Positions 32,387 to 58,989 of a DNA stretch of 64,000 nucleotides are shown here, in pieces (positions within the stretch are counted from its first letter, which is position 1; every line of letters begins with the position of its first letter). The translations under genes were made by a program, and so were the position numbers. Origin of the DNA: an uncultured Nitrososphaeraceae archaeon (lineage in GTDB: Archaea > Thermoproteota > Nitrososphaeria > Nitrososphaerales > Nitrososphaeraceae); NCBI GenBank assembly GCA_963837175.1, contig CAWIMJ010000013.1, positions 29,000 through 92,999 of the forward strand, given 5' to 3'. The notes under the pieces are model-generated. The model did no database searches and was not told the origin of the DNA. It saw nothing but the letters and a program-made list of their open reading frames with translations.

Positions 32387-32859
32387 TTTTAAAATCCCTT
32401 TTATCGACTAATACAGATTATCTTCTTTTATTAATGTAACTATACTGTAACCATATCCTCACTTTCAGATTTGCCGTAGTGAAAATGCTGATTACATACT
32501 TCCTTCAGAGCTCTATTTTCTAAATTGTTTATGATAAAGAATTGAAATATTACCAGTAGAATATATTTAAACCTTGAATCCATTACAACCCATCCAGCAG
32601 ATGTAAGTTCTAACTCTTCCGAAGATCATCACATATTTGAAGCATGTATAAACTCAAACTCATCTCTAGAAATTAATGATTATTTATGATATTGCGCATG
32701 AATCGTCAAGCCTTTGTAATAGTAGCAGTTGACCACACCTCTAATCAGAGTCAAGGTACGTTAGACTAGAAAACATATGACGTTCAGTATTTTGATTAAA
32801 TCAATTTTTTTACACTTTATAGTTTGATATAAATCAAATATTATAGTTGCATCATACCT

Positions 32860-33804: not shown

Positions 33805-33819
33805 ATCTAATTCTCATTA

Positions 33820-34833: not shown

Positions 34834-35085
34834 CTCTTGCTATTAAACTATTTTAAGATTATAAATTTTTCGTCTTGAGATTACTAACTAATATATCCTT
34901 TAATTGAAAATATTGAAAATACGTATTTAAATCCTGAAGAATTTAATTCTAAATATTATTAGATTGAACAACTTATGATCAAAATATATACATATATACA
35001 CAAACACATATGAATACCACTACAGCGTATACATTAGTATTTTTGCAATTGAATTAAATAGAGAAAAATATAAAATTAGATACAA

Positions 35086-36571
35086 GTGAGCGTCGGCAAG
35101 AACATTTGGTATACTTCAATTAGCACATTAATACCTTCTACCTTTGCATATCTTTTTTGGTTTGTAACAGCAAAGATGTATGGTGCGGAGACGATTGGTG
35201 TTGCTTCTACCATAGCCTCATTAGTTATAATTATAGCGACAATTAATGTTTTGGACATGCATCTAGGGATGAAGCGTTCGTTGGGAATTGCGATCTCTTC
35301 TGGAGATATTGGAAGGTTCAAACAAATTCTCACTTCGACAGTTGTATTTGTATCTATAATAGTTATAATTAGCACGGTTCTCATAGTAATACCAAACCTG
35401 AAAATACTTGAGATGCTGAGGATTGATCGCCAATATACTTGGATATTAATTGCAATGATTCTTGCCCAGGCATTCCAGTATATCTTTATAGAAGCTCTGA
35501 TCTCGGCTCTTAGATCCAAGAACCTTGTAATGCCACTTCTGTTAGGCTCATTGAGTAGGTTTCCTATATTATTTGGTGTTGCCTACCTGTTTAATACATC
35601 CACTATGGAAACTATAATTGCTTTTTCCTCGACTGTATTCATATCAACTGCTTTCTTCGCTATCTATTCAATCAAAATCTTTCGTGGAAGCCAAGTTAGA
35701 GCAACAGAAAACCTCTGCTCAAACATTATGCATATTCTTCGTGTATCTGTATCCAGCTGGATTCCAAATATTTTATATATATTTGGATACCTGTTTGGTA
35801 TTATAACTGTATTCTCAGTTGTAGGAGGCAGCAGAGGGAGGTAAGCTTTACATAGTCATGGGGACATTCATAATTATTCTTTTTATAGTAAACAGCATCA
35901 ATAAAGTAACACATTCTTTGGTCGCAGGTTTAAATAATAACGAACAACAAACGACCTATCTTTCCTACTCTATGAAGGTTGCATTCATATTTACTATGCC
36001 ACTCGCAATGCCATTGCTGTTCTTTGCCAACAATTTTCTTGGGTTAGTGAATAAAGAATTCAGTTCTGCAGCTAGCGCTATGTCTATTTTCATGATTAGT
36101 CTACCGATTGTGATTATTTCCGAAATGGTGTATTATTTTGTATACGGAAGAGGAGATCAAAAATCTGTTTTGTTTCTCGGCCTTACGGGTAACATCCCAA
36201 GGGTTGTCCTATATTTTTTTCTTTCTCCTATTCTAGGTATTAATGGCGCCGCTCTAGCGTTCTTGGTTGGGTCGGTTACCCAATTTGTATTATCCGTTAA
36301 GGTGGGAAATAAGCACTCAATATCTATGCAATTTAGAAAATATATTATTTTAACTACAATCCCGTTAACGATAGGATTTCTTACATGGCTGGCAAATATA
36401 AATTTTGTAATATCTACAATCATTATTTTTATAGGTTCATTTCTATTATACATTAGGCTACACATGTTTACTGATACAGAATTGCATAATCTTATTTATG
36501 CAGGACTCCCAGCGAGCCAGGCCAACAAGGTCTATCCAATAGCGTCAAAGGTAATGCAGAAAATTAAGTAG
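35086..36571 (+). pseudogene. Oligosaccharide flippase (Wzx/MOP family), split by one frameshift near 35828
   Basis: Two collinear multi-TM ORFs (35086..35844 and 35858..36571); removing one G restores GAAEGGKLYIVM. Confidence 0.75.
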
Positions 36572-38069: not shown

Positions 38070-39437
38070 CTAAGGATCAATAGATTTGTGAATCCGATTC
38101 ATTGTTGTTGGAAGGTGAATGGCTTCACTATTAATATCTCTGACAGCTTCTGCAAATGACTCTGGAAGAGTGGGATGAGCATGTATAGTATCGAATATGT
38201 CTTTAAGACTTAATTTCATTTTGATTGCTAGTGCTGCCTCCCCTATTATTTCACCTGCATGCGGTGCAACGATATAAGTTCCGACAAGTCTTCCTTCCTT
38301 CTCAAAGACCTTAATAAGCCCCCTTGTATCTCCCAAACAATTTGCCTTTGCGCTTGCTGCAAGTGAAAATTCTCCAGATCTTCCATTTAAGTCCCCTACG
38401 AATGCAACTTCTGGATGAGTGAATACGCATACAGGTAAGGATAGATAGTCAATGCTGTTGTTGTAATCATCATAATTATTTTTTATTCCCATTATATTTT
38501 CAGCAGCAATCTCACCTTGCTTTGAGGCAACATGTGCAAGTTCATACATGCCAGTTACATCACCAATTGCATATACATTGTGAACGTTAGTTCGCATTTT
38601 TTTATCTACGCTAATACCTTGTTGTTGGTCGAATTTTATACCAATATTATTTAGTTCATTAGGATTTATATTTGGTCTTCTCCCTATACAAATAAGTATC
38701 TTTTCTGCAAGAAGTTTTTCTCCATTAACAAAAGCTACGTTATCAATGATTTTTTCTACCCTTGATTTTGTCATTACATTGACACCATCAAGAGTCATAT
38801 ACTTCCCAACTGTATTTCCAATTTCTTGTATTTGAAAAGGCATTAGATGATCTTCAGCCTCAATCAAAGATACTTTGCATCCTAAAGCATTCAAAATAGA
38901 AGCAAATTCACATCCACTATACCCACCTCCAATAATAGTAATCGACTTGGGTAAGTCTTCTAATTCTAGAATCGAAGTAGTTGATAGTATATTTTCTCCA
39001 AATTCGTAACCTTGCAAACAAACAGGATAGCTTCCTGTAGCGATAACAATATTTTTTGTTTCTATCATGATGTCATTGAGTTCCACTTTATTTGCTGAAA
39101 CAATATGTGCTTCACCTTTCAGTAGATTCACCCCATTACTTTCTAGAAGAAGCTTTATTCCTGAAGCAAGTCTGGAAACTGTGGCCTCCATTTTGGACTT
39201 TAAAAGTTTATAATTCAATTCAATGTGGATATTTAACCCATTCTTCTTTGCACGAGTTGCTCTTTTCATTGTATCTCCTAAAGAGTGAAGATACTTAGTA
39301 GGAATACATCCCCTTTGAGTGCAAGTTCCACCTAATCCATTCTTTTCAATTAGGCAAACGTTGCCACCAAGTTGTGCTGCTCTAATAGCACAAACATAAC
39401 CGCCAGGACCTCCCCCTATGACTATTGTATCATACAA
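38070..39437 (-). CDS. lpdA: Dihydrolipoyl dehydrogenase (GCS L protein)
   Basis: VIGGGPGGY, redox CTQRGC, IIGGGYSG, AIGD, HAHPTLPE; probable TTG start at 39437. Confidence 0.92.
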   Translation of the reverse strand: MYDTIVIGGGPGGYVCAIRAAQLGGNVCLIEKNGLGGTCTQRGCIPTKYLHSLGDTMKRATRAKKNGLNIHIELNYKLLKSKMEATVSRLASGIKLLLESNGVNLLKGEAHIVSANKVELNDIMIETKNIVIATGSYPVCLQGYEFGENILSTTSILELEDLPKSITIIGGGYSGCEFASILNALGCKVSLIEAEDHLMPFQIQEIGNTVGKYMTLDGVNVMTKSRVEKIIDNVAFVNGEKLLAEKILICIGRRPNINPNELNNIGIKFDQQQGISVDKKMRTNVHNVYAIGDVTGMYELAHVASKQGEIAAENIMGIKNNYDDYNNSIDYLSLPVCVFTHPEVAFVGDLNGRSGEFSLAASAKANCLGDTRGLIKVFEKEGRLVGTYIVAPHAGEIIGEAALAIKMKLSLKDIFDTIHAHPTLPESFAEAVRDINSEAIHLPTTMNRIHKSIDP

Positions 39438-39495
39438 TATACTGTCTCTGCCGTAACTTCCAAATACTTGGCAATAAGTCTTTGAATTAATTAAT

Positions 39496-40290
39496 TTACT
39501 TTCTCCAATTCCATTGATTTGATATATATTTCTCACTGGCCAACTTCTTTGCATTTTCCTTTTCTTCTGTGGTTAGATTATCAACAATACTCTCAGCATC
39601 AAATTTTTCACAGAAAGACTCTTTTAGATTGTATGCAACCTGTTCAAATGTCTTATTCAATCCCATCACCCTTGCTTTTACGTCATTTATCATCTTGTCC
39701 TTGATTTTTTCAGATGGAACTTTCAACACAGAAAACATCTTCTCGACATTAACATCTAATAATATTGTTCCATGCTGCAGTAGTGTATTTTTCTTCCTAG
39801 TTTGAGCATTTCCAGATACTTTCTTGTTATTGATTATTATGTCATTCAGAGGAACAAATTTTGCTATAAATCCAAGCTTATTTATACACATTACTACTGG
39901 ATCACATATTAAATTATATGACTCCCTGATGCTTTTTGGATAAATCTTTGTAATGAATGAATAAGTCAATTCAGATTCATGCAATACTGCTCCTCCTCCT
40001 GTTATTCTTCTGACAATATCAATACCTATTTGCTTGCACTTTTTTACATCTACTTCTTCATCCATGCTCTGGAAGTACCCTATTGACACAGCTGCTGGTT
40101 GCCAGCCATAAAGTCTTAAAATTGGCATATCATGATTTACATAATTCATTAATATCTCGTCAAGAGCCATATTCCATGGTCCTGAATTATATCCAGTCTC
40201 TAAAATTCTGATTTTACTAAACTTGAAACTCATTGTTTCTTTTTTCTTCCTTCTTCTTCTTGTTGCTATTTTTGTTCTTGCTTTAAACAT
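39496..40290 (-). CDS. lplA: Lipoate-protein ligase, catalytic subunit (probable start at 40233)
   Basis: NMALDE, LRLYGW, SIGYFQ, VRRITGGGAV, NDI..KKVSGNAQ, LQHGT. Confidence 0.92.
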   Translation of the reverse strand: MFKARTKIATRRRRKKKETMSFKFSKIRILETGYNSGPWNMALDEILMNYVNHDMPILRLYGWQPAAVSIGYFQSMDEEVDVKKCKQIGIDIVRRITGGGAVLHESELTYSFITKIYPKSIRESYNLICDPVVMCINKLGFIAKFVPLNDIIINNKKVSGNAQTRKKNTLLQHGTILLDVNVEKMFSVLKVPSEKIKDKMINDVKARVMGLNKTFEQVAYNLKESFCEKFDAESIVDNLTTEEKENAKKLASEKYISNQWNWRK

Positions 40291-40553
40291 CCAAGAATTG
40301 CATCTGTCATAGATATTGAATCAAAACCAAATGCTTCAGAGTAATTCAAGCATTTCTCGATCTTTTGCTTAACAGAATCTTTTTCTAATTTTGTGCCAAT
40401 TAGATTGACTTCAAGTCCATCCAAACTTTCTTCTGGATAAAGAAAAAAATCTCCAGTTATCTTTATTGAATTAATTATATTACTACGCTCATCATATTCA
40501 AGAAAAATTTTGATCAATTTTTCTGATTTGTATATATTATGTAGCATTCTCAT
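40266..40553 (-). CDS. Lipoate-protein ligase accessory subunit (LplB-like, stand-alone C-terminal domain)
   Basis: KLIKI....I.SIKITGDFFLYPEE..LE..L.G pattern; directly upstream of lplA. Confidence 0.85.
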   Translation of the reverse strand: MRMLHNIYKSEKLIKIFLEYDERSNIINSIKITGDFFLYPEESLDGLEVNLIGTKLEKDSVKQKIEKCLNYSEAFGFDSISMTDAILGCLKQEQK

Positions 40554-40588
40554 TGATCATTACTGGTGTTACTATCACTCACAGATTT

Positions 40589-42079
40589 TTAATAAGTAAA
40601 TCTTCTCCGCCACCTGTCTTTTTTTTCATCTGATTGTGAAGGTATGGTCCATCTTAAATTCGGTTTTCGTGCTGCAGCAACCTCATCCAACCTGCCAACT
40701 GATTTTGTATATGGGGATCCTTTGACAATATCTGGGTTTTCTTTTATCTCTTTTGCTATACTTCTTAATGCTGACGCAAATCTATCCAAGGTTTCTTTGC
40801 TTTCTGTTTCGGTAGGCTCAATCATTAACGCTTCGCGAACAATAAGAGGAAAGTAGATGGTTGGTGGATGAAAGCCATAGTCCAAAAGTCTTTTCGCTAT
40901 ATTCAAAGCGCTCTTTTCGCCAAATTTCTTAGAAGATAAGACAAATTCATGAGCACATCTACGATTATAGGGAAGTTCGTAATCCTCCTTTAATAAACTG
41001 AGAAGGTAATTGGCATTCAATATCGCGTTCTCAGATACCTTTCTTATATTTGTACCCAATGATTTGATATAACAATAAGCTCTGACCAGCATACCGAAAT
41101 TTCCATAACAATATCTTACCCTTCCTACAGATTTTCGTTTTGTGTAATCTAGCGAGAACTTGCTGTCGTGTTTTACTATTGCTACTACTCGTGGTAATGG
41201 CAAATAATCTGACAAAAATGACTTTACTCCAAGAGTTCCTGAGCCAGGGCCTCCACCACCATGTGGAGTTGAAAAGGTCTTATGTAAGTTCAAGTGAATC
41301 ATATCAAATCCTTGATCGCTTGGCCTGGTTATCCCCAGTAATGCATTCATGTTTGCTCCATCACAATACATCAACGTCCCATTGGTATGTGCAAGATCAC
41401 TAATCTCTAGAATGTTTTCTTCAAAAAGTCCAAGAGTATTAGGATTTGTTAACATAACAAGAGCTACATCATCTTTAAGTGATTCTTTGAATTTATAAAT
41501 GTCCATATTGCCACGTGAATTGGAGGGAATAGTTATAGTTTCAAACTTACACATGGCTGCAGTTGCAGGATTTGTGCCATGAGCAGAATCAGGAATCATT
41601 ATCTTTGTTCTTTTTTCATTCTTCTGTTTATAGTACGCCTTTGTTATCATAACTCCTAAAAGTTCGCCTTGTGCTCCAGCTGCAGGTTGCAATGAAAAAG
41701 CATCCATACCTGTAATTTTCTTTAAGTCTTGCTCCAATTCCCACATCAATTGCAATGATCCTTGAATACAACTTTCATTAGAAAGAGGATGTAGATCTTT
41801 AAATCCATCCAATCTTGCAACATCTTCGTTTATCTTCGGATTATACTTCATTGTACAGGAACCTAATGGATAAAATCCAAGGTCAACACCAAAATTCATT
41901 CTTGATATGTTAGTGTAATGTCTGACAACATTGATCTCACTTACATTTGGAAGAGGAAGTTCTTTTCGAATTAGATCTTTTGGTAATCCAACTAGAACAT
42001 CTCCTACTCGTTCTTCTTTATCACTGATCTCAGGTACATGTCCTGTAGCATGTTCTTCGTATTCGAATATTAGCTTCAT
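40589..42079 (-). CDS. gcvPB: Glycine dehydrogenase (decarboxylating) subunit 2
   Basis: YPLGSCTMKYNP, LQPAAGAQGE, SAHGTNPA, PLP lysine in LNLHKTFSTPHGGGGPG, MIEPTETE. Confidence 0.96.
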   Translation of the reverse strand: MKLIFEYEEHATGHVPEISDKEERVGDVLVGLPKDLIRKELPLPNVSEINVVRHYTNISRMNFGVDLGFYPLGSCTMKYNPKINEDVARLDGFKDLHPLSNESCIQGSLQLMWELEQDLKKITGMDAFSLQPAAGAQGELLGVMITKAYYKQKNEKRTKIMIPDSAHGTNPATAAMCKFETITIPSNSRGNMDIYKFKESLKDDVALVMLTNPNTLGLFEENILEISDLAHTNGTLMYCDGANMNALLGITRPSDQGFDMIHLNLHKTFSTPHGGGGPGSGTLGVKSFLSDYLPLPRVVAIVKHDSKFSLDYTKRKSVGRVRYCYGNFGMLVRAYCYIKSLGTNIRKVSENAILNANYLLSLLKEDYELPYNRRCAHEFVLSSKKFGEKSALNIAKRLLDYGFHPPTIYFPLIVREALMIEPTETESKETLDRFASALRSIAKEIKENPDIVKGSPYTKSVGRLDEVAAARKPNLRWTIPSQSDEKKDRWRRRFTY

Positions 42080-43380
42080 TTTATTATTGTTGTCTCCTTT
42101 ATTGCCGAAACAAAAGATTCTATGTCTTGAACTGTATTCATTTCAGTACAACAAATTAACATTTTATCTTCTCCTAAATCAAGACCACCAAGAATCCCAT
42201 TTTTGAACAAGTTTGAAAAAATCTTTTTAGAAGTTCCTACAGGTGCCCTCATAATGAACTCATTGTAAAATGGTTTTTTGTTTAAAGCTTTGAAGCCAAT
42301 ACTCTCCAATTTATAGTGCAATAAGTGTGCTCTACTGTAAGAAAGTTTTGCAACATTAATTAGTCCGCTTCTACCCATAAGTGCCAAATAAATAGTCGAG
42401 GCTACGGCCATTAGTGCTACATTAGTTGTTATATTGCTTGTAGCTCTTTCTCTTCTTATATGTTGTTCGCGCGCCTGAAACGTTAGTACAAAGCCTTTAT
42501 TCCCTTTGGAATCTGTAGTCATACCACAAATTCTTCCTGGAATTTTCTTTAATAAAAAATCCTTTACTCCCATGAATCCAAGATATGGGCCTCCAAAGTT
42601 CACAGGAATACCAAAGGATTGTCCTTCGCCTACTACTATATCGGCACCATAATTTCCAGGTGGTTCTAGTATTGCAAGGGAGGTAGGCTCGACAACACAA
42701 ACAATAAAGAGCGCACCTACTTTATGTGCCTGTTCGGATAAATACTGTAAATTCTCAATGTTTCCGTAGAAATCGGGGTTCTGAGCAACTACACATGCTG
42801 TGTTCTCATCGATCTCATTTATTATCTGGAGATCTGCTCCTTCACAATACGTTTTCAAAACTTCAAAATATTGAGGATTAAGTCCTTCATTAATAAAAAT
42901 GCAATTCCTTCCATTATAAGATGAAGAGAGCAAGACTGCTTCTGCCAAGGCTGAAGAACCTTCATACATAGAAGCATTAGCTACGTCCATACCAGTAAGA
43001 AGACATATGAATGATTGGAATTCGTACATGGCATGCAGGGTTCCTTGACTCATTTCTGCTTGATAAGGTGTATATCCTGTAAGGAATTCTCCTCTCAGTA
43101 GCAAATGGTTTACTGCAGATGGGATATAATGATTGTAAGCTCCAGCCCCAATAAAGTATTTCATGATCTTATTCTTTTGAGATAAATTCTTCATATGTCT
43201 CACCAATTCAAGCTCACTCATAGACTCATACAGATCCAGTTTTTCAAGAGGAGGCTTCAAATCTGTGATTAAATCATTTATCGAGCTGACTCCAATTTGC
43301 TTTAACATTTTTTCTCTATCGTTATCAGTTATGGGTATGTAATCCATGATATAATATGCAGTTACATGTCGCCTGTTCAT
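42076..43380 (-). CDS. gcvPA: Glycine dehydrogenase (decarboxylating) subunit 1 (probable start at 43347)
   Basis: FIGAGAY, YTPYQAEMSQG, NASMYEG, FGGPYLG, REQHIRRERATSNI. Confidence 0.96.
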   Translation of the reverse strand: MNRRHVTAYYIMDYIPITDNDREKMLKQIGVSSINDLITDLKPPLEKLDLYESMSELELVRHMKNLSQKNKIMKYFIGAGAYNHYIPSAVNHLLLRGEFLTGYTPYQAEMSQGTLHAMYEFQSFICLLTGMDVANASMYEGSSALAEAVLLSSSYNGRNCIFINEGLNPQYFEVLKTYCEGADLQIINEIDENTACVVAQNPDFYGNIENLQYLSEQAHKVGALFIVCVVEPTSLAILEPPGNYGADIVVGEGQSFGIPVNFGGPYLGFMGVKDFLLKKIPGRICGMTTDSKGNKGFVLTFQAREQHIRRERATSNITTNVALMAVASTIYLALMGRSGLINVAKLSYSRAHLLHYKLESIGFKALNKKPFYNEFIMRAPVGTSKKIFSNLFKNGILGGLDLGEDKMLICCTEMNTVQDIESFVSAIKETTIIK

Positions 43381-43412
43381 ATATAATATATAATAGTTGC
43401 TACTCCTATAAC

Positions 43413-44094
43413 GGGGTTGTTAACTTAAGCAATCACCTCTGTTGTAATAACTAAACAAAAAGATTAAATCAATTTTTAACATGATTTAATTTACATTTAC
43501 TTTTAGTACATGGAAAGTAATCATCAAACATTTTATTCTGTCTTTTACGTACTGAATTGTTCGGTCAATTATACTCTTCTCATCATAAGATGAATGTAAA
43601 TGATTTTTTATGATCATTAATTTACAAACATTTGGATACCATGTACCACCATATCAGTTGAGATTTGATGTTTTTCATATTCTTTAACTAAAGAATGTAA
43701 AAACTTCTCGGCAACAAATATGTTCCTTTCTGCTGCTAAAAGATAAACATCAAGAATTAATTTGTTGACAGGTTCAATTGCAATCCAAATCCAGAAATAC
43801 TCTTTACCTACTTTAATTTGAGTTTCATCAACTATAAATCCAGAGATTTTTCTTCTTTTACAAAACATTTTTTCTGGTCTGTATTTCTGTATCCATTTCC
43901 AGATAGCAATATGACTTCTTTTTTTAAATTTGAATGATAATGCTTTTGCTGTATTACATATGAAAGACCAAGAAAATATAGATATAAACCATAACCAATA
44001 ACCTTCGCAGATGTTCTAGTTCTTTTCGTAAGTATCAATACAAGAAATAGAGAGTATCTGAAATTATAACTTTTATTCTTAAGTTAACAGAGCC
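43413..44094 (-). mobile_element. IS6-family element, degraded
   Basis: TIRs GGGGTTGTTAACTTAAG / CTTAAGTTAACAGAGCC; flanks CCTATAAC / ACTGTAAC (6 of 8 match); VDETQIKVG..WIWIAIEP fragments. Confidence 0.88.
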
Positions 44095-44283
44095 ACTGTA
44101 ACAGTTAAAGAAGAAAGATATATATTTGCATTTGATAGAAGATATGAACTACTACATTAGATCTTTCTCGTGAGTATTCTAAATTACTTAACAAGGTATC
44201 AAAGGATAATGACTTAACTATAGCGAGTTATATAATATCAATGGGAATAGAGATCAACCTATCAGATAATTACAGGAAGAATA

Positions 44284-45295
44284 TGCTTTGTTGCACAACT
44301 CATTTAGATAATCATTCATCTATCTTCCAATACTAATTGATAATTATGTAATGGCTATACTCTGAAACCAGTTATACAATGATACTTTCAGCATTATCTC
44401 TTTTATCATGTTTTCAAATCTAATAGCAGTAACATATTCTCCAAACATTCTCTTAATACAGGAAAAGATAGTTTCTACAATCCATCTCTTGCCATAGATG
44501 ACGCTATCCTTCCATTGTTGTAGATCGGTTTTCTGTGATTGTACAGGCTTGTTTCTGAGATAGTGATTTGTTTTTCTGTATATGGAATTCTTTCGTACCT
44601 TTATTGCTGGTCTGATTCCTTTAAATGATAATAGTTGGAAATTCCTGTTACTGTCATATGAACCATCAGCAATAACAGATTCTACTGTCTTATTTTGATT
44701 TATTGTTATATCATCTATCAATTCTGACAGTACTTTACCATCATGTACTTGTTCGCTGGTTACATCTAATGATATTATTTTCTTCTTTTTGATATCAACT
44801 GCTACATGTATCTTTAGGTATCCTCTCTTTACATTCCACTTATGTCTAATCCATTCACCTCTATTTGTTACCTTGATACCAGTCGAATCAACTGCAATTA
44901 CAAAATAATCATCATTGTTGTTATTGTTTTTGCTGTTTATGTTGATATCCAATCTGTTTATTCTTCTGTTAATGTTACTATAATAATCAGGAATGGATGG
45001 TAATGTACTTGAAGCGCGTTCTCGTACTACACCTTCAGTTTGTCTATAAGGTAGATGAAAGTACACCCTCATGTAGCCAAGTAATTCGATAAATGAATCT
45101 GGATAAACAAATTTTCTACCTTTCTTATCTTTGTTCATCTCATCTAATTCGATATGCCAATTATCAATAACATCAAAATCAAGTAATACCTCACCACGTT
45201 TAACAAGAGATTCGTTGTAATTTCTCCAGTTCATATAAGATGACTATTATCGGTTAGCTAAATGTGTTTATAGCAATGAGTTGTGCAACAAAGCA
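44284..45295 (-). mobile_element. IS5-family (IS903-like) insertion sequence, apparently intact
   Basis: Perfect TIRs TGCTTTGTTGCACAACTCATT / AATGAGTTGTGCAACAAAGCA; GAAGAATA duplicated on both sides. Confidence 0.95.
44344..45234 (-). CDS. IS5-family DDE transposase
   Basis: NWRNYNESLVKRGE, LPYRQTEG, AVDSTGIK, KIHVAVD, ADGSYD, Y..RWIVETIFS.IK. Confidence 0.95.
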   Translation of the reverse strand: MNWRNYNESLVKRGEVLLDFDVIDNWHIELDEMNKDKKGRKFVYPDSFIELLGYMRVYFHLPYRQTEGVVRERASSTLPSIPDYYSNINRRINRLDININSKNNNNNDDYFVIAVDSTGIKVTNRGEWIRHKWNVKRGYLKIHVAVDIKKKKIISLDVTSEQVHDGKVLSELIDDITINQNKTVESVIADGSYDSNRNFQLLSFKGIRPAIKVRKNSIYRKTNHYLRNKPVQSQKTDLQQWKDSVIYGKRWIVETIFSCIKRMFGEYVTAIRFENMIKEIMLKVSLYNWFQSIAIT

Positions 45296-45937
45296 GAAGA
45301 ATATTAAAGTATTAAGTAAATTTTCAACTTTTTATTGTTCCAGTAATAATATTAAAAATATTTGTTCAAACAAGTAACACAAGAAGATATATTAGCATTT
45401 CTGAATAGTTCCATAGACCTGAATCATCAGAATCCTCTATAAGTGGATTGGAACTTGTAACATGTAAAGGACATATATGGTGCGTCTATTCAAATATTAT
45501 ATTATCCTGATATTGAACCCGGTAAAAGGCCTAAACCAGAAGTAATTGAGAATATTCCTCAATTAAAGAGAAAAGAAACATCAATCTACAAACCAACTGA
45601 TTTATGGACTGCAGAAGATGACCTGTTATTTTTGAAACACTGTTCTTCAAAGAGGATGAAATCTTATCATGCCATATCCGGGATACAAATTGCAGACGCC
45701 GTGAACTATTGAAACTCAATAAAGATATTGTATTCAAATTTACAGGAATCCCTCAATATACAGACGTTTTATTGAACGAAATCGAATAAAAGAACTTATC
45801 CTATCGACACTAATATAGCGAGTAAAAGAAACGATGACACAGAGCATTGACAACTATCGATGATGTATTGCATAAGTGATAGCTCTAATAATTTCGATGA
45901 AGTTTAAAATACATGAGACTAAGCAACTCAAATACTG

Positions 45938-46672
45938 CTAATCATTTTGTAATATATATGTAATATGGCCCAACTCTTTCAAAAGAAAGAGTTTATATAA
46001 TTTACGCCTTTCCCAAGGCTCCTTTATTAGCAAATGAGCAGAACCATATTGACTAAGTATTTCTTTTAGTTGTTTTTCATGTAAGAAATTTACTTCCAGT
46101 CCAGGCTTTATTTCTGTCATAAAACGGCTGACATCAAGATTTAAAAGGTTAATCAGTTTTAATCCGTAAAATGCTACAAAGGATGTAAATCGTGAAATAA
46201 TATATGAATTGTAATATACCTCCTGAATTATCAAAATACCGCCGTCATCTAGTTTATCAATTAACAATCTCAGCATTTTCTCAATAAGACTTGTGCTCTT
46301 GCCTCTAGTGTGTCCAATAAGATGATGTAAAACAGAATCTATGTGAATAACATTGAATTTTATGTTGCGTTTTATAGGAATTTTAAAACCATCAGCTACG
46401 AAGAATTCCACATCACAACCAGCTAGATTCTCCCTTGCTATTTCGATCATTTTTAAAGATAAGTCGAATGCAAAATAGTTTGCCTTTATGTTAGCGTTAA
46501 TTAAGGCTTTAATAAAATTCCCATTGCCGCATCCAATATCCAAAAAGTTGGCATCACCATTTGTTGGTATAATACTTTTTATCTGTTTTATTACAGATAA
46601 GTGGAATTCTGGACTTGGTGAATAATCTTGATGGGATGCATGAATCTCAAAAAATGATTTTACATTACTCAT
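45938..46672 (-). CDS. Class I SAM-dependent methyltransferase
   Basis: FLDIGCGNG, FDLS..MI, VLHHL. Confidence 0.88.
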   Translation of the reverse strand: MSNVKSFFEIHASHQDYSPSPEFHLSVIKQIKSIIPTNGDANFLDIGCGNGNFIKALINANIKANYFAFDLSLKMIEIARENLAGCDVEFFVADGFKIPIKRNIKFNVIHIDSVLHHLIGHTRGKSTSLIEKMLRLLIDKLDDGGILIIQEVYYNSYIISRFTSFVAFYGLKLINLLNLDVSRFMTEIKPGLEVNFLHEKQLKEILSQYGSAHLLIKEPWERRKLYKLFLLKELGHITYILQND

Positions 46673-46887
46673 ATTAATTTGCTAGCTAATGAGAACTTAT
46701 TAAACGTAGAGTCATAAGTATGTTTTATTTCCCTATTTATTATATCCAAAATTAAAATGTTTGAGTAAAGTTAGCAATAGTTTTTTCTTGATATTTTTTA
46801 ACAATCGAATAATTAACACTATAATACATACATTATGAATCAATCAATCAATGTAAATACTAGCTGATTCAGTTTAAACTTATGCCT

Positions 46888-46986
46888 ATGATAAAAGCAT
46901 CAATTCTTATGGTCATTTCATATTATCTTAGGGCAGGTGGTGCCGAGTCAGTTATCAAAAATCTTGTTGCTGTACTGTATGAATAA
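46888..46986 (+). pseudogene. Short GT4 N-terminal stub, paralogous to 28078..28467
   Basis: MIKASILMVISYYLRAGGAESVIKNL versus MDKASILMIVSNYFRAGRVEVVINNL. Confidence 0.55.
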
Positions 46987-47166
46987 CATATTGCACTACT
47001 AGCAATGTATTTTTTATTATCACTGTCCACTTTTTGGTATCGCTGATGATCTTGTGATAGCAGAGAAGAAAGTATACATAAGCAGGTAGATGTGCTCATG
47101 ATATTATTGATTGCAGAAGAGAATTAGTAGCAATATTGTGTTTGGTACTGTACTATTTGACTCTTG

Positions 47167-48441
47167 CTACCCTTTTCTTCTAATAACATCCATTAGTCGC
47201 TTTCCAATCATTTCCAACGTCAAGTTATTATTTATATTATTAAAGCCATTGTTTCCTAATCTCTTTGCTAGATCCTTATCATTTAGTAATTGCATTATTA
47301 ATTGAGCCAATTCTTCAGGCTGCCTTGTTGTAGCCACTAATCCTGTTTGAGTTTTTATAATGTATCTGCCTGTTTCGCCATTGGAAATACAAACTATAGG
47401 TTTTCCTAATGCTTGGTATTCTAAGAGTTTTGTAGGTAAGCCCTGATCCGCAACGCTAGAATCCAAATTCATAGGCAATAGAAATATATCAGCACTGTTC
47501 AGAACAGAGACCAATTGCTCTTGTGATAATAAATCCGTTCTAACTTCTACATTTTTTACATCATACTCTTTTACCATTTGGCTTACTTTATCTGAAAGTA
47601 CTCCTATTCCCCTGATGATAAAATACACTGGCTGTAATTCAAGAAGTTTTGCCGATTTAATAACAGTCTCAAAATCATAACCAAGATTTAGATTACCAGA
47701 ATACATTATTGTTGTCGTTCTTGTTTTTGTTGTCGATGTTATTTTTTTATTTTTATCATTATTATTAAGATTATTATCGATGGTAGAGGAGGAAGAAGAA
47801 TAATTTGTTTTAGGTATACAGAATTTCCTAGTATCTACACCATGTTCTATAACCGTAATTTTTTCTTGTGGTATACGATACTTTGTAATTAATGTTTGAA
47901 CATATCCATGGCTTATAGGAATAATTGCTACAGGTATGCGATAAGATATGCTTGCAACAAAGTCAAGTATTCTTTTAAAGAATCTAGACTTTACAATACC
48001 AAGATCGTAGAAAGCCTCCGGCCACAAGTCATCAACATTGCGAATAATATTTTTGCGAAATAGTACCTTATATATAAGAGCAGGAAAAAAAGCAAAAAAA
48101 CTTGGATTCATTGCAAATATGACATCAACTTTTCTTATGTGTACAAGACCAAAAAGTGATGAGAGCATAAATGAGATATGTAGTAACACTCTTTTAATAA
48201 GTGGTACATGAGCAAAACTGGGAACCCAGGTCCTTACTAGTTTTATTCCATCGATCTCTTCTAAAGATAAAATCCTCATTTTATATTTATTTGAAATATG
48301 ACCGTCAGGATAATGAGGGAATGCTGCAATAACTGTTACATTGTATCCCTGAAGTTTTAAACCTAATGCAGCATTATATGCCCGCATACTACTACCGTTC
48401 CAATCTGGTGGAAAGTATTGAGAAATCATTAAAATATCCAT
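47167..48441 (-). CDS. GT4 glycosyltransferase (WbuB-like)
   Basis: ISQYFPP, FPHYP.G, DLWPE, YSGNL, LPTKLLEYQALGKPIV. Confidence 0.9.
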   Translation of the reverse strand: MDILMISQYFPPDWNGSSMRAYNAALGLKLQGYNVTVIAAFPHYPDGHISNKYKMRILSLEEIDGIKLVRTWVPSFAHVPLIKRVLLHISFMLSSLFGLVHIRKVDVIFAMNPSFFAFFPALIYKVLFRKNIIRNVDDLWPEAFYDLGIVKSRFFKRILDFVASISYRIPVAIIPISHGYVQTLITKYRIPQEKITVIEHGVDTRKFCIPKTNYSSSSSTIDNNLNNNDKNKKITSTTKTRTTTIMYSGNLNLGYDFETVIKSAKLLELQPVYFIIRGIGVLSDKVSQMVKEYDVKNVEVRTDLLSQEQLVSVLNSADIFLLPMNLDSSVADQGLPTKLLEYQALGKPIVCISNGETGRYIIKTQTGLVATTRQPEELAQLIMQLLNDKDLAKRLGNNGFNNINNNLTLEMIGKRLMDVIRRKG

Positions 48442-49078
48442 TATAATACCAATTCTTTATTTCTTGATCTTCTTTTTTTCTATCTTATATTTATTTGTGT
48501 AGATTAAAAGACTAGCAGTAGAGTAATAGGCATTCAAATAAGTATTGACATTAGTTTTCCTTCTTAAGAATGCGTTCTTGTTTTCTTTGTAGATGAACTT
48601 CTCAGTTTATTGTAAGAAAAGTAATTCTGCAGGAGATACTAACCATCATGGGTGTCTCTAAAGGCGATAGATATTGATCATTTTATAATAGTCATTTTAA
48701 ACCGACCACAGGATCAATCAGAGGATATTTCGACACGGGAATAAGGAGACTTCACAACGAAGAATGCTCAGTATTTGAAGGAAATAGACAAAAAACATAA
48801 CTAGCAAAACAGGATGTTACTTAAAAGTAATAAAAGATATAACTATAATATTAATTGTACTATTACTTAGAAGTGCAGGATATAACTACGTATTCGAATT
48901 CTATGTCATATGATGATATGTTAGAAACGTTAAGAAAATAAGTAAACTTACATGTAGAGATATGTTTGGTAAACTGGTCTGACATATACGGAGTTTTTGG
49001 TCAACCACACAATTGATAATACATGTAACTCATTATTTACGATAGAATTTAGGTGTGTAATACATAATAATCAAATAT

Positions 49079-49498
49079 CTATCTGCTTCCTTCTCCATCT
49101 TCTTCCTCTTTTTTATTTTCAATTTCTCCAATGAACTCATTATATTGCTCATTTGTAATCAAACTGTTAAATTCTTCTTTGTTCGATGGTTTCATTTTTA
49201 CAATCCAACCCAAATCATATGGAGACTGGTTTATCCACTCAGGATGCTCAAGCAAGTCTTCATTGACCTCAACAACTTCTCCACTCAAAGCACAATATAT
49301 ATCAGAAGAAGCCTTTACTGAATCAATTATAGCCATAACCTGCATCTGTCTATATATACTACCGATCTTTGGTAATTCTATCGAAACTATATCTCCAAGC
49401 TGTCTCTGAGCAAAATCTGAAATCCCCATAACAGCCAGTCCTCCTTCTTTTATTATAATCCACTCGTGTTCTTTTGTAAATCTTTTGCCTTCAATCAT
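49079..49498 (-). CDS. gcvH: Glycine cleavage system H protein
   Basis: FTKEHEW, GISDFAQ..LGDIV, lipoyl-Lys in DSVKASSD, SGEVVEVN, INQSPY..GW. Confidence 0.96.
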   Translation of the reverse strand: MIEGKRFTKEHEWIIIKEGGLAVMGISDFAQRQLGDIVSIELPKIGSIYRQMQVMAIIDSVKASSDIYCALSGEVVEVNEDLLEHPEWINQSPYDLGWIVKMKPSNKEEFNSLITNEQYNEFIGEIENKKEEEDGEGSR

Positions 49499-49528
49499 AA
49501 AGATCTTTTTTAATGCTCCATAAAAAAC

Positions 49529-50599
49529 TTACTTTCGCTTATAGAATCGTGTACTACTAATAACTTTTGCTTTATACAATTTACTGCCGATATCAATTTC
49601 AATTAATTGATTAGGCAAACAGTCTATAGGAACAAAGCAAAAGCCAATAGACTTTTTTAGAGTTGGTGAAAAACTTCCACTGGTTACAAAACCTACTTTT
49701 TGACCATTCAATAATACTTCATTTCCGTGTCTAGCTACCCTTTTTTCTAGAACCTCAAACCCCACAAGCTTTCTATTTATGTATTGGGTTGTTAACGCTT
49801 TCTTTCCAATAAACTCTTCCTTTCCAAGTTTCACTGTCCACTTAAGTGGGACTTCTAAAGGAGTAGTATTTTCATTTATGTCATTTCCATAAAGCATCAA
49901 ACCAGCCTCTAGTCTGAGTGTATCTCTGGCACCCAAGCCAGCCGGTTTAATATTAAATCTGGAGCCTAGCTGTATGATCTTATCCCAAATATCTATTTTT
50001 GAAGAATCAACGAATATCTCAAAACCATCTTCCCCTGTATAACCAGTTCTTGATACCATGCATTCTATTCCAAAAATATTTGTAATAATAAGATCAAATG
50101 GCTTTAATTGATCCAAACTTGCACCAAATATTGTTTTCTCAAGAACATTTTGAGCAAGAGGACCCTGGAGGGCCAGAAGGGCAATTTTATCACTAATATT
50201 TTCAATAACAACTGACTTTGAATGCTTAACAATCCATTGGAGATCCTTTTCCACACATGAAGCATTAACTACAATAAGAAATTTCTCTCTATTAATCATG
50301 TATATGATTAAATCATCTATTATGCCTCCATTATCATAACACATAGGAGAATATAATGCCTGATGGTCTTTTAATTTTGAGATATCATTAGTTACTAATT
50401 TTTGGAGATAATCATAGGCGTCAGGGCCTTTAACTTCAAAACGACCCATGTGTGAAACATCAAATAAACTAACATTTGTTCTAGTGTTGATATGCTCGTC
50501 AATTATTCCAGAAGAATATTGCACAGGCATTTCCCATCCATGAAAGTTCAGCATTTTTGCTCCAAAAGATTTATGTATATTATAAAAAGGCGTCTTCAT
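49529..50599 (-). CDS. gcvT: Aminomethyltransferase (GCS T protein)
   Basis: GWEMPVQY, FDVSHMG, ALQGP, SRTGYTGEDGFE, GLGARDTLRLEAG, VTSGSFSPTL. Confidence 0.96.
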   Translation of the reverse strand: MKTPFYNIHKSFGAKMLNFHGWEMPVQYSSGIIDEHINTRTNVSLFDVSHMGRFEVKGPDAYDYLQKLVTNDISKLKDHQALYSPMCYDNGGIIDDLIIYMINREKFLIVVNASCVEKDLQWIVKHSKSVVIENISDKIALLALQGPLAQNVLEKTIFGASLDQLKPFDLIITNIFGIECMVSRTGYTGEDGFEIFVDSSKIDIWDKIIQLGSRFNIKPAGLGARDTLRLEAGLMLYGNDINENTTPLEVPLKWTVKLGKEEFIGKKALTTQYINRKLVGFEVLEKRVARHGNEVLLNGQKVGFVTSGSFSPTLKKSIGFCFVPIDCLPNQLIEIDIGSKLYKAKVISSTRFYKRK

Positions 50600-50681
50600 A
50601 TATGTAGGTCAGCAAAATAATTAACAATCAATGCGTATTAACTCTTATTATTATGGATACTATCGGTAAAAGTGTGTACAA

Positions 50682-51557
50682 ATGGAACTAATAAGAAAAC
50701 CAGTGTGGCTTAGAGTAAGAGCACCATCAGGGGAAAATTATACAAAGGTTAAACAATCACTTAGATCCCTCGAACTTCATACCGTTTGTGAAGAAGCAAG
50801 ATGTCCTAACATATCAGAGTGCTGGGGAACAGGAACAGCCACAATTATGATTATGGGAGATATATGCACTAGAGGATGTAGATTTTGTGCTGTTACTAGT
50901 GGCAAACCAGTAGCTTTACTTGATGCGGGTGAGCCAGAAAGGGTGGCTAAGGCAATTAAAGAATGGGGATTAAGATACGTAGTAATTACGTCTGTTTGTA
51001 GAGATGACTTAGAGGATGGGGGAGCAGAACATATAGCTAAAACAATCAAAGCCATACAACATCTATGCCCTAAAATAATAGTAGAATCATTGATCCCAGA
51101 CTTCAGAGGAAATGTGGATTCAGTAAAAAAGGTAGTTAAATCCCAACCACAAGTTATAAGTCATAATATCGAAACTGTACTTAGACTTGTGCCTAAAGTT
51201 AGAGATGCTAGAGCTTCCTATGAACAATCACTTTGGCTTTTAAAAAAAATTAAGGATATGAATTCAATGATTTATACAAAATCTTCTATAATGCTTGGTC
51301 TTGGAGAAACGGAAGAAGAAATTATTCAGACAATAAGGGATTTGAGATCAGTTGGAGTGAATATGTTAACCATGGGTCAATACCTTCAACCAACTCCTAA
51401 GCATTTGCCAGTTGTCGTATATATTACACCAGAAAAATTTAATTGGCTTAGGGAAATTGCAGAGAGAATGGGGTTTGTTTATGTAGCCGCTGGTCCACTT
51501 GTTCGAAGTTCTTATAGAGCAGCAGAATTTTTCATAGGAAATTATAACCAGGCGTAA
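50682..51557 (+). CDS. lipA: Lipoyl synthase
   Basis: CEEARCPNISEC, radical-SAM CTRGCRFC, HNIETV, GQYLQP, VRSSY. Confidence 0.97.
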   Translation: MELIRKPVWLRVRAPSGENYTKVKQSLRSLELHTVCEEARCPNISECWGTGTATIMIMGDICTRGCRFCAVTSGKPVALLDAGEPERVAKAIKEWGLRYVVITSVCRDDLEDGGAEHIAKTIKAIQHLCPKIIVESLIPDFRGNVDSVKKVVKSQPQVISHNIETVLRLVPKVRDARASYEQSLWLLKKIKDMNSMIYTKSSIMLGLGETEEEIIQTIRDLRSVGVNMLTMGQYLQPTPKHLPVVVYITPEKFNWLREIAERMGFVYVAAGPLVRSSYRAAEFFIGNYNQA

Positions 51558-51752: not shown

Positions 51753-52448
51753 GGCACTGTTCAGTTAACGGATAGAGCTATAGCTAAAAACATCCTATTA
51801 TACCCATAATGACTATATTCAAGGAAAGAAGTAGGGCCTCTTCAAAGTATGTTTATTACGCATTACAGCTATACTCTTCAGGGCTATCACTCAGGAAAAC
51901 GTTTGAAAGATTAACTGCGGTACGTATCAAAAGAAATCATGTCTCTATCTGGAATTGGATTCAACGATACAAACCAAAGAGGATATTTCAGGCTAGAAGT
52001 ACAATATCTGAATTCATAATTGATGAGACATTGATTAAAGCCGGTAGTGATTATGTATGGATTTGGGTTGCGATTGAGCCAATGAATAAGATGATTCTAG
52101 GCATTCGTCTCTCTATAGAGAGAGAAGTATGCTAGTTGCTGAACAGTTTATAAAATCACTGATTAGAAGATATGGAAAGCACAATATTTCAACAGACGGT
52201 GGTACTTGGTACCCACAGGCATGTAGATTTCTAAACATTGAACATCACAATCATTCCTCGATTGAAAAAAGCTTCATAGAAAGGACTATACAGTACATAA
52301 AGGATAGAACTGAATGTTTTGATGATTATTTTCCTTGTACAAGAATTAACTGCAAACTGGAGCACATAGTGAAGTGGTTAATTTTATTTGTAGATATGCA
52401 TAACAGAGAGCTCATAATAAAACGAAGAATTGTTAAATGAACAGGGCC
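51753..52448 (+). mobile_element. IS6-family element, near intact (one frameshift in an AG run near 52120)
   Basis: TIRs GGCACTGTTCAGTTAAC / GTTAAATGAACAGGGCC; perfect 8-bp TSD TAGATTTC; IDETLIK, STDGGTWY, IERTIQYIKDR in ORFs 51809..52135 and 52129..52440. Confidence 0.93.
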
Positions 52449-53607: not shown

Positions 53608-54135
53608 CTATATATGTAAATCCCATTCTGCTTTTTTCCTATCATACTCATCTCTGGAGTATTTTATTCTAGCAGGATGTCCCATTACAACAACATCAGA
53701 TGGGACATCTCTGGTTACTACTGCAGCCATAGCTACTACACTGTTTTTTCCAATTCTGACTCCAGGCTTCATTACTGCTCTGCTGGCAATGATGGCTCCA
53801 TCTTCCACAGTAACTCCAACCATTTTTGGGCTCATAGGATATGGATCATTAGTAAAAGTAGCCCCGGGGCCAATAAAGACATTTTTTCCTATTGACGTTA
53901 ATGGAGGAATATATACAGAACCTTCAATTCTTGTATTATCACCAATTTTTACTTTATAATCTACATGTGTCAGAGAACCAATCATTACATTATCTCCAAT
54001 TATTGTATCGTTTCCAACATATGCAAAATGCCATATCTTTACATTTTTACCTATCCTTGCAGTTTTTGATATATAGTTTGTTACTTCTGGAGGATTAGAA
54101 TAATAATAATTATTTTGTTGTTCCATGCAACACAA
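53608..54135 (-). CDS. Hexapeptide-repeat N-acetyltransferase (WbpD/WlbB-like)
   Basis: IWHFAYV, VFIGPGATFTND.YP, VVTRDVP..VVMGHPAR. Confidence 0.9.
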   Translation of the reverse strand: MCCMEQQNNYYYSNPPEVTNYISKTARIGKNVKIWHFAYVGNDTIIGDNVMIGSLTHVDYKVKIGDNTRIEGSVYIPPLTSIGKNVFIGPGATFTNDPYPMSPKMVGVTVEDGAIIASRAVMKPGVRIGKNSVVAMAAVVTRDVPSDVVVMGHPARIKYSRDEYDRKKAEWDLHI

Positions 54136-55308
54136 CTCCCTTTAAGATGTCATAGATTTTCTTGCTTTATAACTCTATTATCATACTATTTGTGTCATGA
54201 AGTAATATTAACAAAACTTATCATATTTACTAACGAAATCCTGATCTTATTATCTTAGGATTATTATAAGTATAAAACAAAAATTGTTTATGATACTGCT
54301 AAAGTAATTTTTCAATTTCTTTATCATATAGAAAGTTTGCTACTAAAACCGAATAAAATTCATTTATAGTTCTACTAAAATCTAAATGGAGGAAGTTAAG
54401 TATTTTTAATCCATAAAATATTATTGACTATGTAATGTTAGCGATTATGTATGAAATATATATAACTTCATGACTAAAACTCCATTATCAGAGAGCGCCT
54501 ATCTATCAATAGGTTAAGCATTAGATTTACAAGAGTCATATTTTGAGATCTGGTATTTTTCAATTAGATGATGTAGGACTGAATCTATATGAATAAGATG
54601 GAATTAGATCTCGGATTTTATTGGTAGTTTGAATCAGTCTGAGACAAATAATTTTATTCTCTGGTAATCAAGATTGTTTCTAGCCTCATTTATCATATTA
54701 TGGAATACGTCTGTTCCAACAAAAAGCGCATCAATTCTACTCATTATTGTACTTTTTTATGAAACTGTCATGCCGGAGCAGCCTACATCTAAAATTAATT
54801 CTGCTACATGACTCGATTTTTTGTATATGGCTTATTATTGAAATGTAGAAACTTGGATCTTTATGATATGCCTGATGATGAGCATGATTATCAAAATATG
54901 ATTTGAATTTAGACATTTAGTTACTTTAAAATCTCTAGACTGTATTTAAGAATAATGTAATATTTGACCCTTTAGAAATCATCGATTGTTATCGTCTAGT
55001 TCAACAAATCAATTGATACAAGCTTTGTCATAATATCATTCCGTCTATATGTAACGAAGATGCCAGGATACAAAATACTTTCTTTCCTCAAAGAAAAATT
55101 AGCCCTTTAATCATATTGTATATGGCAGCATATTATTCAATTGGTACTCCACTAACAAGAAGGAAAAAGTTACTGAATATTTTAAAATGCAGATGAAGCA
55201 TATTGTCTCTGGTTTTCTCAATTATTGCTAACTTCCTACAAAGTTAGATTTCACTACTACTTGTGACAAAATAAGCACTAGAGAACAGAATGTATGAGAA
55301 CCCCTAAA

Positions 55309-56322: not shown

Positions 56323-56436
56323 CTAGTGCACATTATTGTGTTATTTATTAGATATAAAGACTTTTCTTAGATAATAATAATATATTTTATTTTGTAGTGA
56401 TCTATTTCAGATGTAAAAGCACTTAGTTTGAATATA

Positions 56437-58870: not shown

Positions 58871-58989
58871 AGTGAACGGTATAAAAGTACGTGGTTTTAA
58901 ATTGAAAGCATCTATTGGCGGACGTTTAATTTTAAGTTGCCAATTTGGACAGTATATTTAACTATTTTTTGTTAAACAAACAAATTTAA

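Follow-up and report, generated by a model that had tools for sequence, protein, structure and literature searches.

A glycine cleavage cassette with its own lipoylation genes in an ammonia-oxidising Nitrososphaeraceae archaeon

The presence of a glycine cleavage system (GCS) together with lipoylation genes in an ammonia-oxidising archaeon (AOA) raises the question of what such a cassette does there and where it came from. The window considered here is a stretch of 64,000 nucleotides (contig CAWIMJ010000013.1) from an uncultured Nitrososphaeraceae archaeon whose assembly, GCA_963837175.1, is 91% complete. Its host, originally predicted to be a probable ammonia oxidiser, is indeed an ammonia-oxidising member of the Nitrososphaeraceae, on the basis of both amoA and family-level kinship: archaeal amoA lies on contig C56 of the same genome (profile search, E 2.7e-118), amoA was detected in 32/34 genomes of this family (f1), and close GcvPB homologues (87–89%) carry the label "Nitrososphaeraceae archaeon".

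The GCS is a textbook system and has already been noted in AOA, so that the bare finding is ordinary. The guess that it might already be reported proved right: GCS and lipoylation genes, with the idea that glycine yields ammonia and energy, have been published for hadal and sponge Nitrosopumilaceae (PMC7265257, PMC7848895), and a GCS for Ca. Nitrosopolaris (PMC13006922). In the sponge and hadal genomes gcvHPT, E3, LplA and LipA occur together, as in the window, and the uses proposed for them, namely C1 units, energy and ammonia, are those considered here for the window cassette (PMC7848895, PMC7265257). The relevant passages of these three papers give neither a common origin nor a family-wide count. 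A GCS in AOA is therefore not new; what is added here is the scale and the history of the cassette.

All components of the system, T, H, PA/PB and L, exceed their curated NCBIfam cut-offs in the window, as does LipA (Table 1). LplA and LplB have the bipartite archaeal ligase as their top models but fall under the cut-offs (NF053750, the best NCBIfam model for LplA, 179 bits against 480; NF053749 for LplB, 50 against 65). Pattern searches found catalytic motifs: the lipoyl Lys62 of GcvH in DSVKASS, with Asp at position -3; the PLP-lysine motif HLNLHK in GcvPB; IIDDL and GARDTLRLEA in GcvT; CX4CX5C, CX3CX2C and RSSY in LipA; CX4C and HPTxxE in LpdA; and KVSGNAQ in LplA. Across 48 gene-pair comparisons dN/dS ranges from 0.06 to 0.49, mostly 0.1–0.3. 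The eight genes are thus intact with their motifs and with ends as first given, although the likely starts of lpdA (TTG 39437, read from the sequence; longest open reading frame from 39554) and gcvPA (ATG 43347; reading frame from 43380) lie inside longer frames, the latter start being kept in aligned congeners. The divergent lipA and gcvT are separated by 82 bp.

Table 1. Cassette genes and neighbouring features in the window (positions are those of the whole stretch)
Feature	Position	Strand	Basis
lpdA, dihydrolipoamide dehydrogenase (L protein)	38070..39437	-	TIGR01350, 428 bits vs cut-off 409
lplA, catalytic subunit of bipartite lipoate/octanoate-protein ligase	39496..40233	-	PF21948, E 9e-47; likely start ATG 40233
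lplB, small ligase subunit	40266..40553	-	NF053749, E 3e-13; PF10437 over cut-off
gcvPB, glycine decarboxylase subunit 2	40589..42079	-	NF003346, 688 bits vs 441
gcvPA, glycine decarboxylase subunit 1	42076..43347	-	NF001696, 530 bits vs 364
AT-rich, TATA-like stretch immediately 5' of gcvPA	43381..43395	-	alignment with G030 and G041
IS6-family remnant	43413..44094	-	NF033587 fragment; terminal inverted repeats
IS5-family element	44284..45295	-	transposase 44344–45234; NF033579, 272 bits vs 140
class I SAM methyltransferase, gap passenger	45938..46672	-	PF13649/PF13847
GT4 glycosyltransferase, gap passenger	47167..48441	-	PF00534, PF13439
gcvH, lipoyl carrier	49079..49498	-	TIGR00527, 128 bits vs 116
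gcvT, aminomethyltransferase	49529..50599	-	TIGR00528, 385 bits vs 236
lipA, lipoyl synthase	50682..51557	+	TIGR00510, 400 bits vs 310; three motifs
IS6-family transposase beside lipA, split over two ORFs	51809..52440	+	NF033587 on both pieces

The cassette is not, however, the single cluster that it was first taken to be. A gap of 5,731 bp, from the end of gcvH to the likely start of gcvPA, splits it in two; besides an IS6 remnant and an IS5 element bounded by 31-nt inverted repeats, it contains genes for a SAM methyltransferase and a GT4 glycosyltransferase. Of 48 loci, 42 show both gcvH and gcvPA, in every case no more than 186 bp apart. This insertion, with the IS6 remnant (12-nt perfect inverted repeat, 43418–43429/44078–44089) some 65 nt ahead of the probable start of gcvPA, might suggest that the five downstream genes have been cut off from expression and that the copy is a relic; frameshifted lplA and lpdA in a relative from outside the genus (G015) would fit this view. 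Yet the split recurs in two congeners, G030 and G041 (37 kb apart in the latter), and is therefore old; dN/dS against the closest congener is 0.10–0.23 and alike for both halves, in keeping with equal purifying selection; and a TATA-like stretch, conserved in G030 and G041, is retained beside gcvPA. The IS6 remnant sits upstream of this stretch and is missing from the corresponding site in both congeners. Hence a relic is most improbable. The TATA-like stretch is a candidate promoter for the downstream half, and the cassette would then form two transcription units. A sigma-70 scan and a 50%-cluster search added nothing. As to the decay of many neighbouring genes, only part of that description stands: coding density is 0.58 in the window and 0.59 in the whole genome, and single-base frameshifts in 3/26 orthologous genes checked elsewhere, FBPase and thyX included, point to assembly indels, which part of the "decay" around the cassette resembles.

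That the GCS does not belong to the AOA core genome was confirmed by a survey of its distribution. The cassette is present in 36/201 Nitrososphaeraceae genomes, that is, in at least 10/18 genera and about one in six species, but in none of the six closed, single-contig genomes of the family; another count gives 22/139 for f1 and 9/139 for f12. Cassettes holding the same genes occur in two other AOA families, f3 and f12. The one apparent case in f8 (1/10) was dropped as likely contamination, since its 1,173-bp contig has 63% GC against 41% at the rpoB locus and its product is only 45% identical to GcvPA. All 13/13 copies in f3 and f12 have a type III PKS-like ketosynthase/F420-reductase (LLM) pair attached, giving a ten-gene form; the pair is absent from the window and its genome and was not found, with one query, in 27 GCS-positive f1 genomes. 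Distant ketosynthase homologues occur in 6/301 other Thermoproteota genomes, one of them 1.2 kb from gcvPB, one 7 kb from gcvH and four unlinked. The Nitrosopumilaceae copies fall in the same clade as that of the window, which differs from them as an eight-gene soil form that lacks the pair and is split in two.

AOA GcvPA plus GcvPB form a single clade (support 100) separate from all other Thermoproteota, and grouping AOA GcvP with non-AOA Nitrososphaerales is rejected (p-AU 6e-5). The ancestral Thermoproteota GCS, found in non-AOA Nitrososphaerales (f9, 58/58; f6, 8/8), catalyses the same reaction and likewise has a split P protein, but it belongs to a separate clade, is about 50% (PB) and 38% (PA) identical to the cassette, and is encoded by scattered genes. 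Loss of this ancestral system has been reported for the last ancestor of AOA (PMC7554672). The best non-AOA GcvPB matches (56–62%) are to the split-P systems of Bacillota and DPANN, and in contigs of Woesearchaeota and Iainarchaeum gcvT-H-PA-PB is accompanied by lipA, lplB, lplA and lpdA; the AOA form differs in its divergent lipA and in a GcvH with Asp rather than Glu at -3, in 38/38 of the listed true AOA GcvH with the motif. The trees are quick trees, one of them built after thinning 24 outgroup rows and removing 3, and the outgroups for LipA, LpdA and LplB comprise 5, 4 and 1 sequences. The stem leading to the AOA sequences is long (0.39–0.6), and the sister groups vary by gene and are weakly supported (AOA+DPANN, 25). 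Family monophyly is not rejected (f1, p 0.40; f12, p 0.66), whereas monophyly of genus g1, supported at 99 by RpoB, is rejected in the cassette tree (p 8e-14).

These trees point to a single entry into AOA from outside Thermoproteota, which would have displaced the ancestral GCS and been followed by loss in most lineages and some movement among soil genera. One old import of all AOA copies forms part of the explanation that we favour and would share its probability, given below; early spread by transfer, in place of ancestral presence within the AOA clade, may also be considered. The module was thus acquired, as originally predicted, in the sense that its origin lies outside; it is nevertheless old, common to three AOA families and largely inherited or lost, rather than a recent gain.

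The cassette contains separate lplA and lplB genes and a LipA with both Fe-S motifs. Synthesis and ligation genes are therefore both present, as had been proposed, but they need not be two redundant routes, because Lpl/LipA is a recognised single route starting at free octanoate (PMC10332631); they are most simply regarded as one pathway. The archaeal bipartite LplAB and LipA route likewise has a two-gene ligase and a lipoyl synthase, lacks LipB/LipM, and can in principle begin with free octanoate; Lpl-N/Lpl-C of T. kodakarensis, as cited in the same paper, is also a two-gene ligase (PMC10332631). The cassette differs from such systems in having a canonical LipA, not LipS1/S2, and in ligase subunits scoring below the curated archaeal models. 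LplAB would load octanoate or lipoate onto Lys62 of GcvH, and LipA would then insert the sulfurs. No FabH or type III PKS-like protein was found in the 91% complete genome, where a thiolase adjoins an F420 reductase on contig C47; the lack of the ketosynthase/F420-reductase pair in soil copies serves as a control, in that the pair, if it makes the C8 chain of lipoate, cannot be universally required. No 2-oxoacid dehydrogenase E2 (PF00198) was detected in this genome, compared with 10/14 controls, which leaves GcvH as the evident lipoyl acceptor. A GcvH-TusA fusion beside a rhodanese on contig C9, which has a second GcvH-like domain in which the motif reads ESIK, could be imagined as the main client of the lipoylation genes. 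Among 50 genomes surveyed, however, this fusion (26/50) is equally present in GCS-negative genomes (e.g. G001, G032, G002, G012 and G207) and was not found in the cassette-carrying f3, f12 and g15, which makes the idea barely credible.

With a probability of roughly 0.6, then, the window encodes a working GCS with its own lipoylation kit, used in the cleavage direction as an accessory, mixotrophy-type route. The P, H, T and L proteins would cleave scavenged or recycled glycine to CO2, NH3, NADH and methylene-THF. C1 units would go to ThyX and PurN, and to SHMT in genomes that have it, and any surplus would exit as formate via FolD and PurU; NADH would spare reverse electron transport, and NH3 would be available to AMO. 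This reading draws on genes, motifs, selection, distribution, trees and the presence of folD, purN, purU-like, thyX and ilvA, from which we infer activity, direction, substrate source, C8 source and promoters. A THF-type C1 carrier pathway was indeed found in the genome, comprising folD, purN, 5-formyl-THF cyclo-ligase, a purU-like gene over the NF004684 cut-off and a frameshifted thyX. Motif patterns (ThyX, urease, cyanase, thiolase and others) came up blank even where thyX and thiolase are present and are uninformative.

Since FolD and the PurU-like protein provide a sink for the C1 unit and close a catalytic loop, this organism could convert glycine into CO2, NH3, NAD(P)H and formate, and a urease-like role becomes plausible. 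Like the urease and cyanase known from AOA, the GCS would liberate NH3 from an organic nitrogen compound; unlike them, it requires lipoate, THF, NAD+ and a methylene-THF sink and has no dedicated linked transporter. Urea use has been seen in AOA (PMC7848895, PMC12625717), and the idea of the cassette as an energy module has been published for AOA of sponges (PMC7848895). In its strong form, imported glycine would be cleaved in bulk, mainly for NH3 and reductant, with C1 discarded as formate; two APC permeases, one intact and fused to Usp, the other frameshifted, would fit. But a glycine transporter, for which such a role would lead one to look, is found neither in nor beside the cassette; PF13458 branched-chain amino-acid binding proteins show no link to the GCS (21/27 GCS-positive against 13/19 GCS-negative family genomes); and loss from most AOA, in both f1 and f12, is unlike a generally useful energy trait. 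Bulk cleavage is possible, though we lean against it. The opposite direction, making glycine from CO2, NH3 and methylene-THF as a reductive glycine pathway, glycine supply or osmolyte, finds encouragement in the reversibility of the GCS (PMC7848895), in a formate-THF ligase (FTHFS) gene within the cassette of one f3 genome (L160), and in the osmoregulation by glycine accumulation proposed for hadal AOA (PMC7265257). However, FTHFS occurs in only 1/70 AOA and not in the 91% complete genome studied here, so that an independent C1 source is lacking and the reductive glycine pathway was rejected; SHMT, present in 107/114 good family genomes, already makes glycine. Reductive use is unlikely, and its odds are slim.

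A further reading concerns glyA, which, like PPDK, was not found in this assembly, so that a serine-pyruvate-PEP branch is only conjectural in this genome. SHMT is present in 6/6 congeners and 169/201 family genomes, including most GCS-positive ones, and the GCS was therefore rejected as a general SHMT replacement. Among the listed SHMT-lacking good genomes (7/114 lack it), only that of the window is GCS-positive. Next to polD DP2, where glyA is normally found, this genome has a different gene, at a point 8.2 kb into contig C43. It is doubtful, but conceivable, that uncultured soil AOA with the cassette feed nitrification directly from glycine via GCS, FolD and PurU, with a yield of two NAD(P)H, and that glyA is truly deleted here, leaving the GCS as sole methylene-THF source and the organism glycine-dependent; such dependence, if true, would help explain resistance to culture in mineral media. 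The missing glyA is probably an assembly gap. Threonine aldolase was discarded as a glycine source, as PF01212 gave weak matches only to GcvPB and to proteins named by eye as SufS-like and BioF-like.

Amino-acid nitrogen use by soil AOA is an old question that can now be tested with AOA-type gcvP as a marker, and the cassette suggests that adding glycine or lipoate/octanoate would help to enrich lineages not yet cultured. RNA-library contigs X1 and X2, from two soil studies, cover cassette genes at 87–98% identity, but contigs are no proof of transcription, and DNA may be present in these libraries.

The glycine cleavage system (GCS) of the window is a real, intact and known system in a group of ammonia-oxidizing archaea (AOA) already reported to have one. 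Earlier papers describe a GCS with lipoylation genes for hadal AOA (PMC7265257), gcvHPT, E3, LplA and LipA for sponge AOA, with energy via ammonia oxidation proposed (PMC7848895), and a GCS for Ca. Nitrosopolaris (PMC13006922); PMC11463064, PMC3904984, PMC10753782, PMC12625717 and bioRxiv 10.64898/2026.10.01.755906 were also considered. A literature search excluding subscription journals and most supplements returned no single-origin claim for the AOA cassette, no paper giving the pair of cassette-linked ketosynthase and reductase, and no glycine-to-nitrite test in GCS-positive AOA. Worth keeping are the family-wide reach of the cassette, its apparent single foreign origin and a possible loss of glyA.

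Profile searches of the window confirmed that the eight genes originally claimed to be intact are real and undamaged, and the claimed catalytic motifs were found by pattern search. The starts of lpdA, lplA and gcvPA are our own reading.

Coordinates of the cassette genes in the window and of two reductase–ketosynthase examples from other genomes
Feature	Position	Strand	Remark
lpdA	38070-39437	minus	start read from sequence
lplA	39496-40233	minus	start read from sequence
lplB	40266-40553	minus	
gcvPB	40589-42079	minus	
gcvPA	42076-43347	minus	start read from sequence
gcvH	49079-49498	minus	
gcvT	49529-50599	minus	
lipA	50682-51557	plus	
LLM reductase + ketosynthase (genome G217)	L160:3426-5477		attached to GCS/lipoate cassette
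LLM reductase + ketosynthase (genome G386)	L149:4581-6626		attached to GCS/lipoate cassette

The 5.7-kb gap between gcvH and gcvPA, unmentioned in the original prediction, holds an IS6 remnant, an IS5 element, a methyltransferase and a glycosyltransferase. Because dN/dS is low (0.06-0.49 in 48 comparisons) and similar in both halves, the split cassette is being maintained. This split is common to the source genome (G000) and its congeners G030 and G041, with the halves 37 kb apart in G041; the DNA is homologous in all three, and a TATA-like stretch precedes gcvPA in each. The cassettes of genomes G017 and G052 are contiguous. Surface-polysaccharide genes, including sugar epimerases, a flippase-like gene in two ORFs, an acetyltransferase, a GT2 and a DegT aminotransferase, surround the cassette (window 27161-36571 and 53608-63259).

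The window corresponds to C13:29000-92999 of the host genome G000 (3.81 Mb, 91.5% completeness), which contains archaeal amoA, in agreement with the ammonia oxidizer originally suspected. Family f1 is read as Nitrososphaeraceae because near GcvPB homologues carry that name and contigs of Nitrososphaera sp. bear the same cassette. Judging from a homologue named Cenarchaeum and from tree position, f12 is probably Nitrosopumilaceae; f8, which is basal, we take to be Nitrosocaldaceae, and f3 is an additional family bearing amoA. The gene was found in 32/34 f1, 7/7 f3, 5/5 f8 and 12/12 f12 genomes, and in 0/22 of the remainder.

Of 201 family genomes, 36 have a GcvPB above the cut-off; they come from 10 of the 18 genera and include no single-contig genome, of which the family has six. 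This tally counts the unpublished G098 (positive), G077, G160 and G168. The belief that GCS lies outside the AOA core is right. In the order sample, GcvPB occurs in 22/139 f1, 9/139 f12, 4/8 f3 and 1/10 f8 genomes, the lone f8 positive being likely a contaminant, and in almost every genome of several non-AOA families (58/58, 8/8). The eight-gene content is constant among AOA copies, and gcvH and gcvPA lie at most 186 bp apart in all 42 loci showing both, from 48 AOA loci examined. In five high-GC f12 genomes lipA-gcvT has relocated to the opposite cassette end (L154-L157, from G444, G362, G405 and G232, and L153); each genome of this set also has 8-25 PF13458 domains.

In the GcvPA+PB trees the 45 AOA rows all group together with support 100, apart from a clade that unites every other member of the Thermoproteota, non-AOA Nitrososphaerales included, and a forced union with the latter was rejected (p-AU 6e-5). 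GcvT, GcvH, LipA, LpdA and LplA each form one AOA clade too, with thin outgroups for some. The top non-AOA matches are from Bacillota and DPANN archaea, at 56-62%, versus at most 55% for other Thermoproteota; Iainarchaeum and Woesearchaeota (DPANN) contigs L034 and L036 carry gcvT-H-PA-PB, lipA, lplB, lplA and lpdA in a single cluster. Loss of the ancestral GCS in AOA is reported in PMC7554672. We read the AOA cassette as a single old import after that loss, followed by numerous losses and some later transfer.

Alternatively, the cassette may have spread early by transfer. Family monophyly inside the AOA cassette tree is not rejected, while that of genus g1, which RpoB keeps together, is rejected (p 8e-14), and for some genus pairs the cassette distance is smaller than the RpoB distance. 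G232 and genus g69 differ far less in their cassettes than in RpoB (ratio 0.40), a hint of transfer from one to the other. In f3 and genus g15 the cassette occupies the same site, flanked by PPDK and TIM-FBPase, but faces opposite ways; the site is empty in 7/30 TIM loci, all seven from GCS-negative genomes.

The cassettes of f3 and f12 add a type III PKS/FabH-like protein (ketosynthase) and an F420-type LLM reductase. The former has an invariant Cys-His-Asn (14/14), and its model (pLDDT 84) resembles 2-pyrone synthase (TM about 0.79). Among f3/f12 genomes it turned up in 13/13 with GCS and 0/21 without, counts in which kin are not independent, and the f3/f12-type query had no match in 27 GCS-positive f1 genomes. 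Among 77 metagenome loci, gcv/lip genes adjoin it in 40; seven with at least 2 kb upstream show none, and the remaining loci are short. By analogy with BioZ (PMC8024396), this ketosynthase is a candidate C8 source. Since the soil-form cassette lacks it, G000 would have to take up lipoate or octanoate or rely on a different route, such as a thiolase-based supply (bioRxiv 2024.07.05.601840). An LLM F420 reductase, 28-33% identical to the cassette-linked reductases, lies directly beside a thiolase in G000 (C47 133571-134503 and adjoining; L482:3395-5483), with bioA/bioB/bioF-like genes nearby.

Coding density is 0.58 in the window and 0.59 in the genome, so that the original contrast between an intact cassette and decayed neighbours is weak. 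Of 26 orthologous genes compared (27 rows with one duplicate; another four rows, differing at start or tail alone, left uncounted), three carry a single-base frameshift; FBPase and thyX are among them, with a one-base break in each (G000:C47:5964-7117 and C46:109678-111327). Such frameshifts more probably stem from assembly than from biology, which suggests residual indel errors throughout the assembly and caution on other pseudogene calls there. glyA is missing from the G000 assembly, with no remnant detected; its conserved, contig-internal site (G000:C43:7132-8501; L454:4133-5502), where five congeners carry glyA, is occupied by a 314-aa gene without an NCBIfam match at 1e-20. A true loss is nevertheless unlikely, as PPDK is missing too and 7/114 good genomes lack glyA.

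The GCS converts glycine, THF and NAD+ to methylene-THF, CO2, NH3 and NADH. G000 has C1 sinks in folD, purN, thyX, cyclo-ligase and a purU-like gene, and it has ilvA. No transporter is linked to the cassette, and the occurrence of PF13458 is unrelated to that of GCS. FolD and PurU would permit GCS turnover without SHMT, formate being released, and this outlet keeps the energy reading alive; the rarity of FTHFS (1/70 AOA) counts against a reductive role. "Both lipoate synthesis and ligation" proves to be one pathway, Lpl plus LipA being an accepted way of starting from free octanoate that 8% of archaeal genomes possess (PMC10332631). With no E2 in G000, GcvH is the evident lipoyl acceptor. AOA GcvH has Asp three residues ahead of the lipoyl lysine, where all outgroup GcvH displayed have the usual Glu; GcvH and the ligase of the cassette may thereby be adapted to each other. 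A GcvH-TusA fusion adjoining a rhodanese (G000:C9:108107-108877; L452:6105-6878), perhaps a sulfur relay, occurs in 26/50 genomes tested, independently of the cassette. The lone FTHFS is encoded within the cassette of a single f3 genome (L160:12996-14717) and might tie the system there to a reductive glycine route or to formate.
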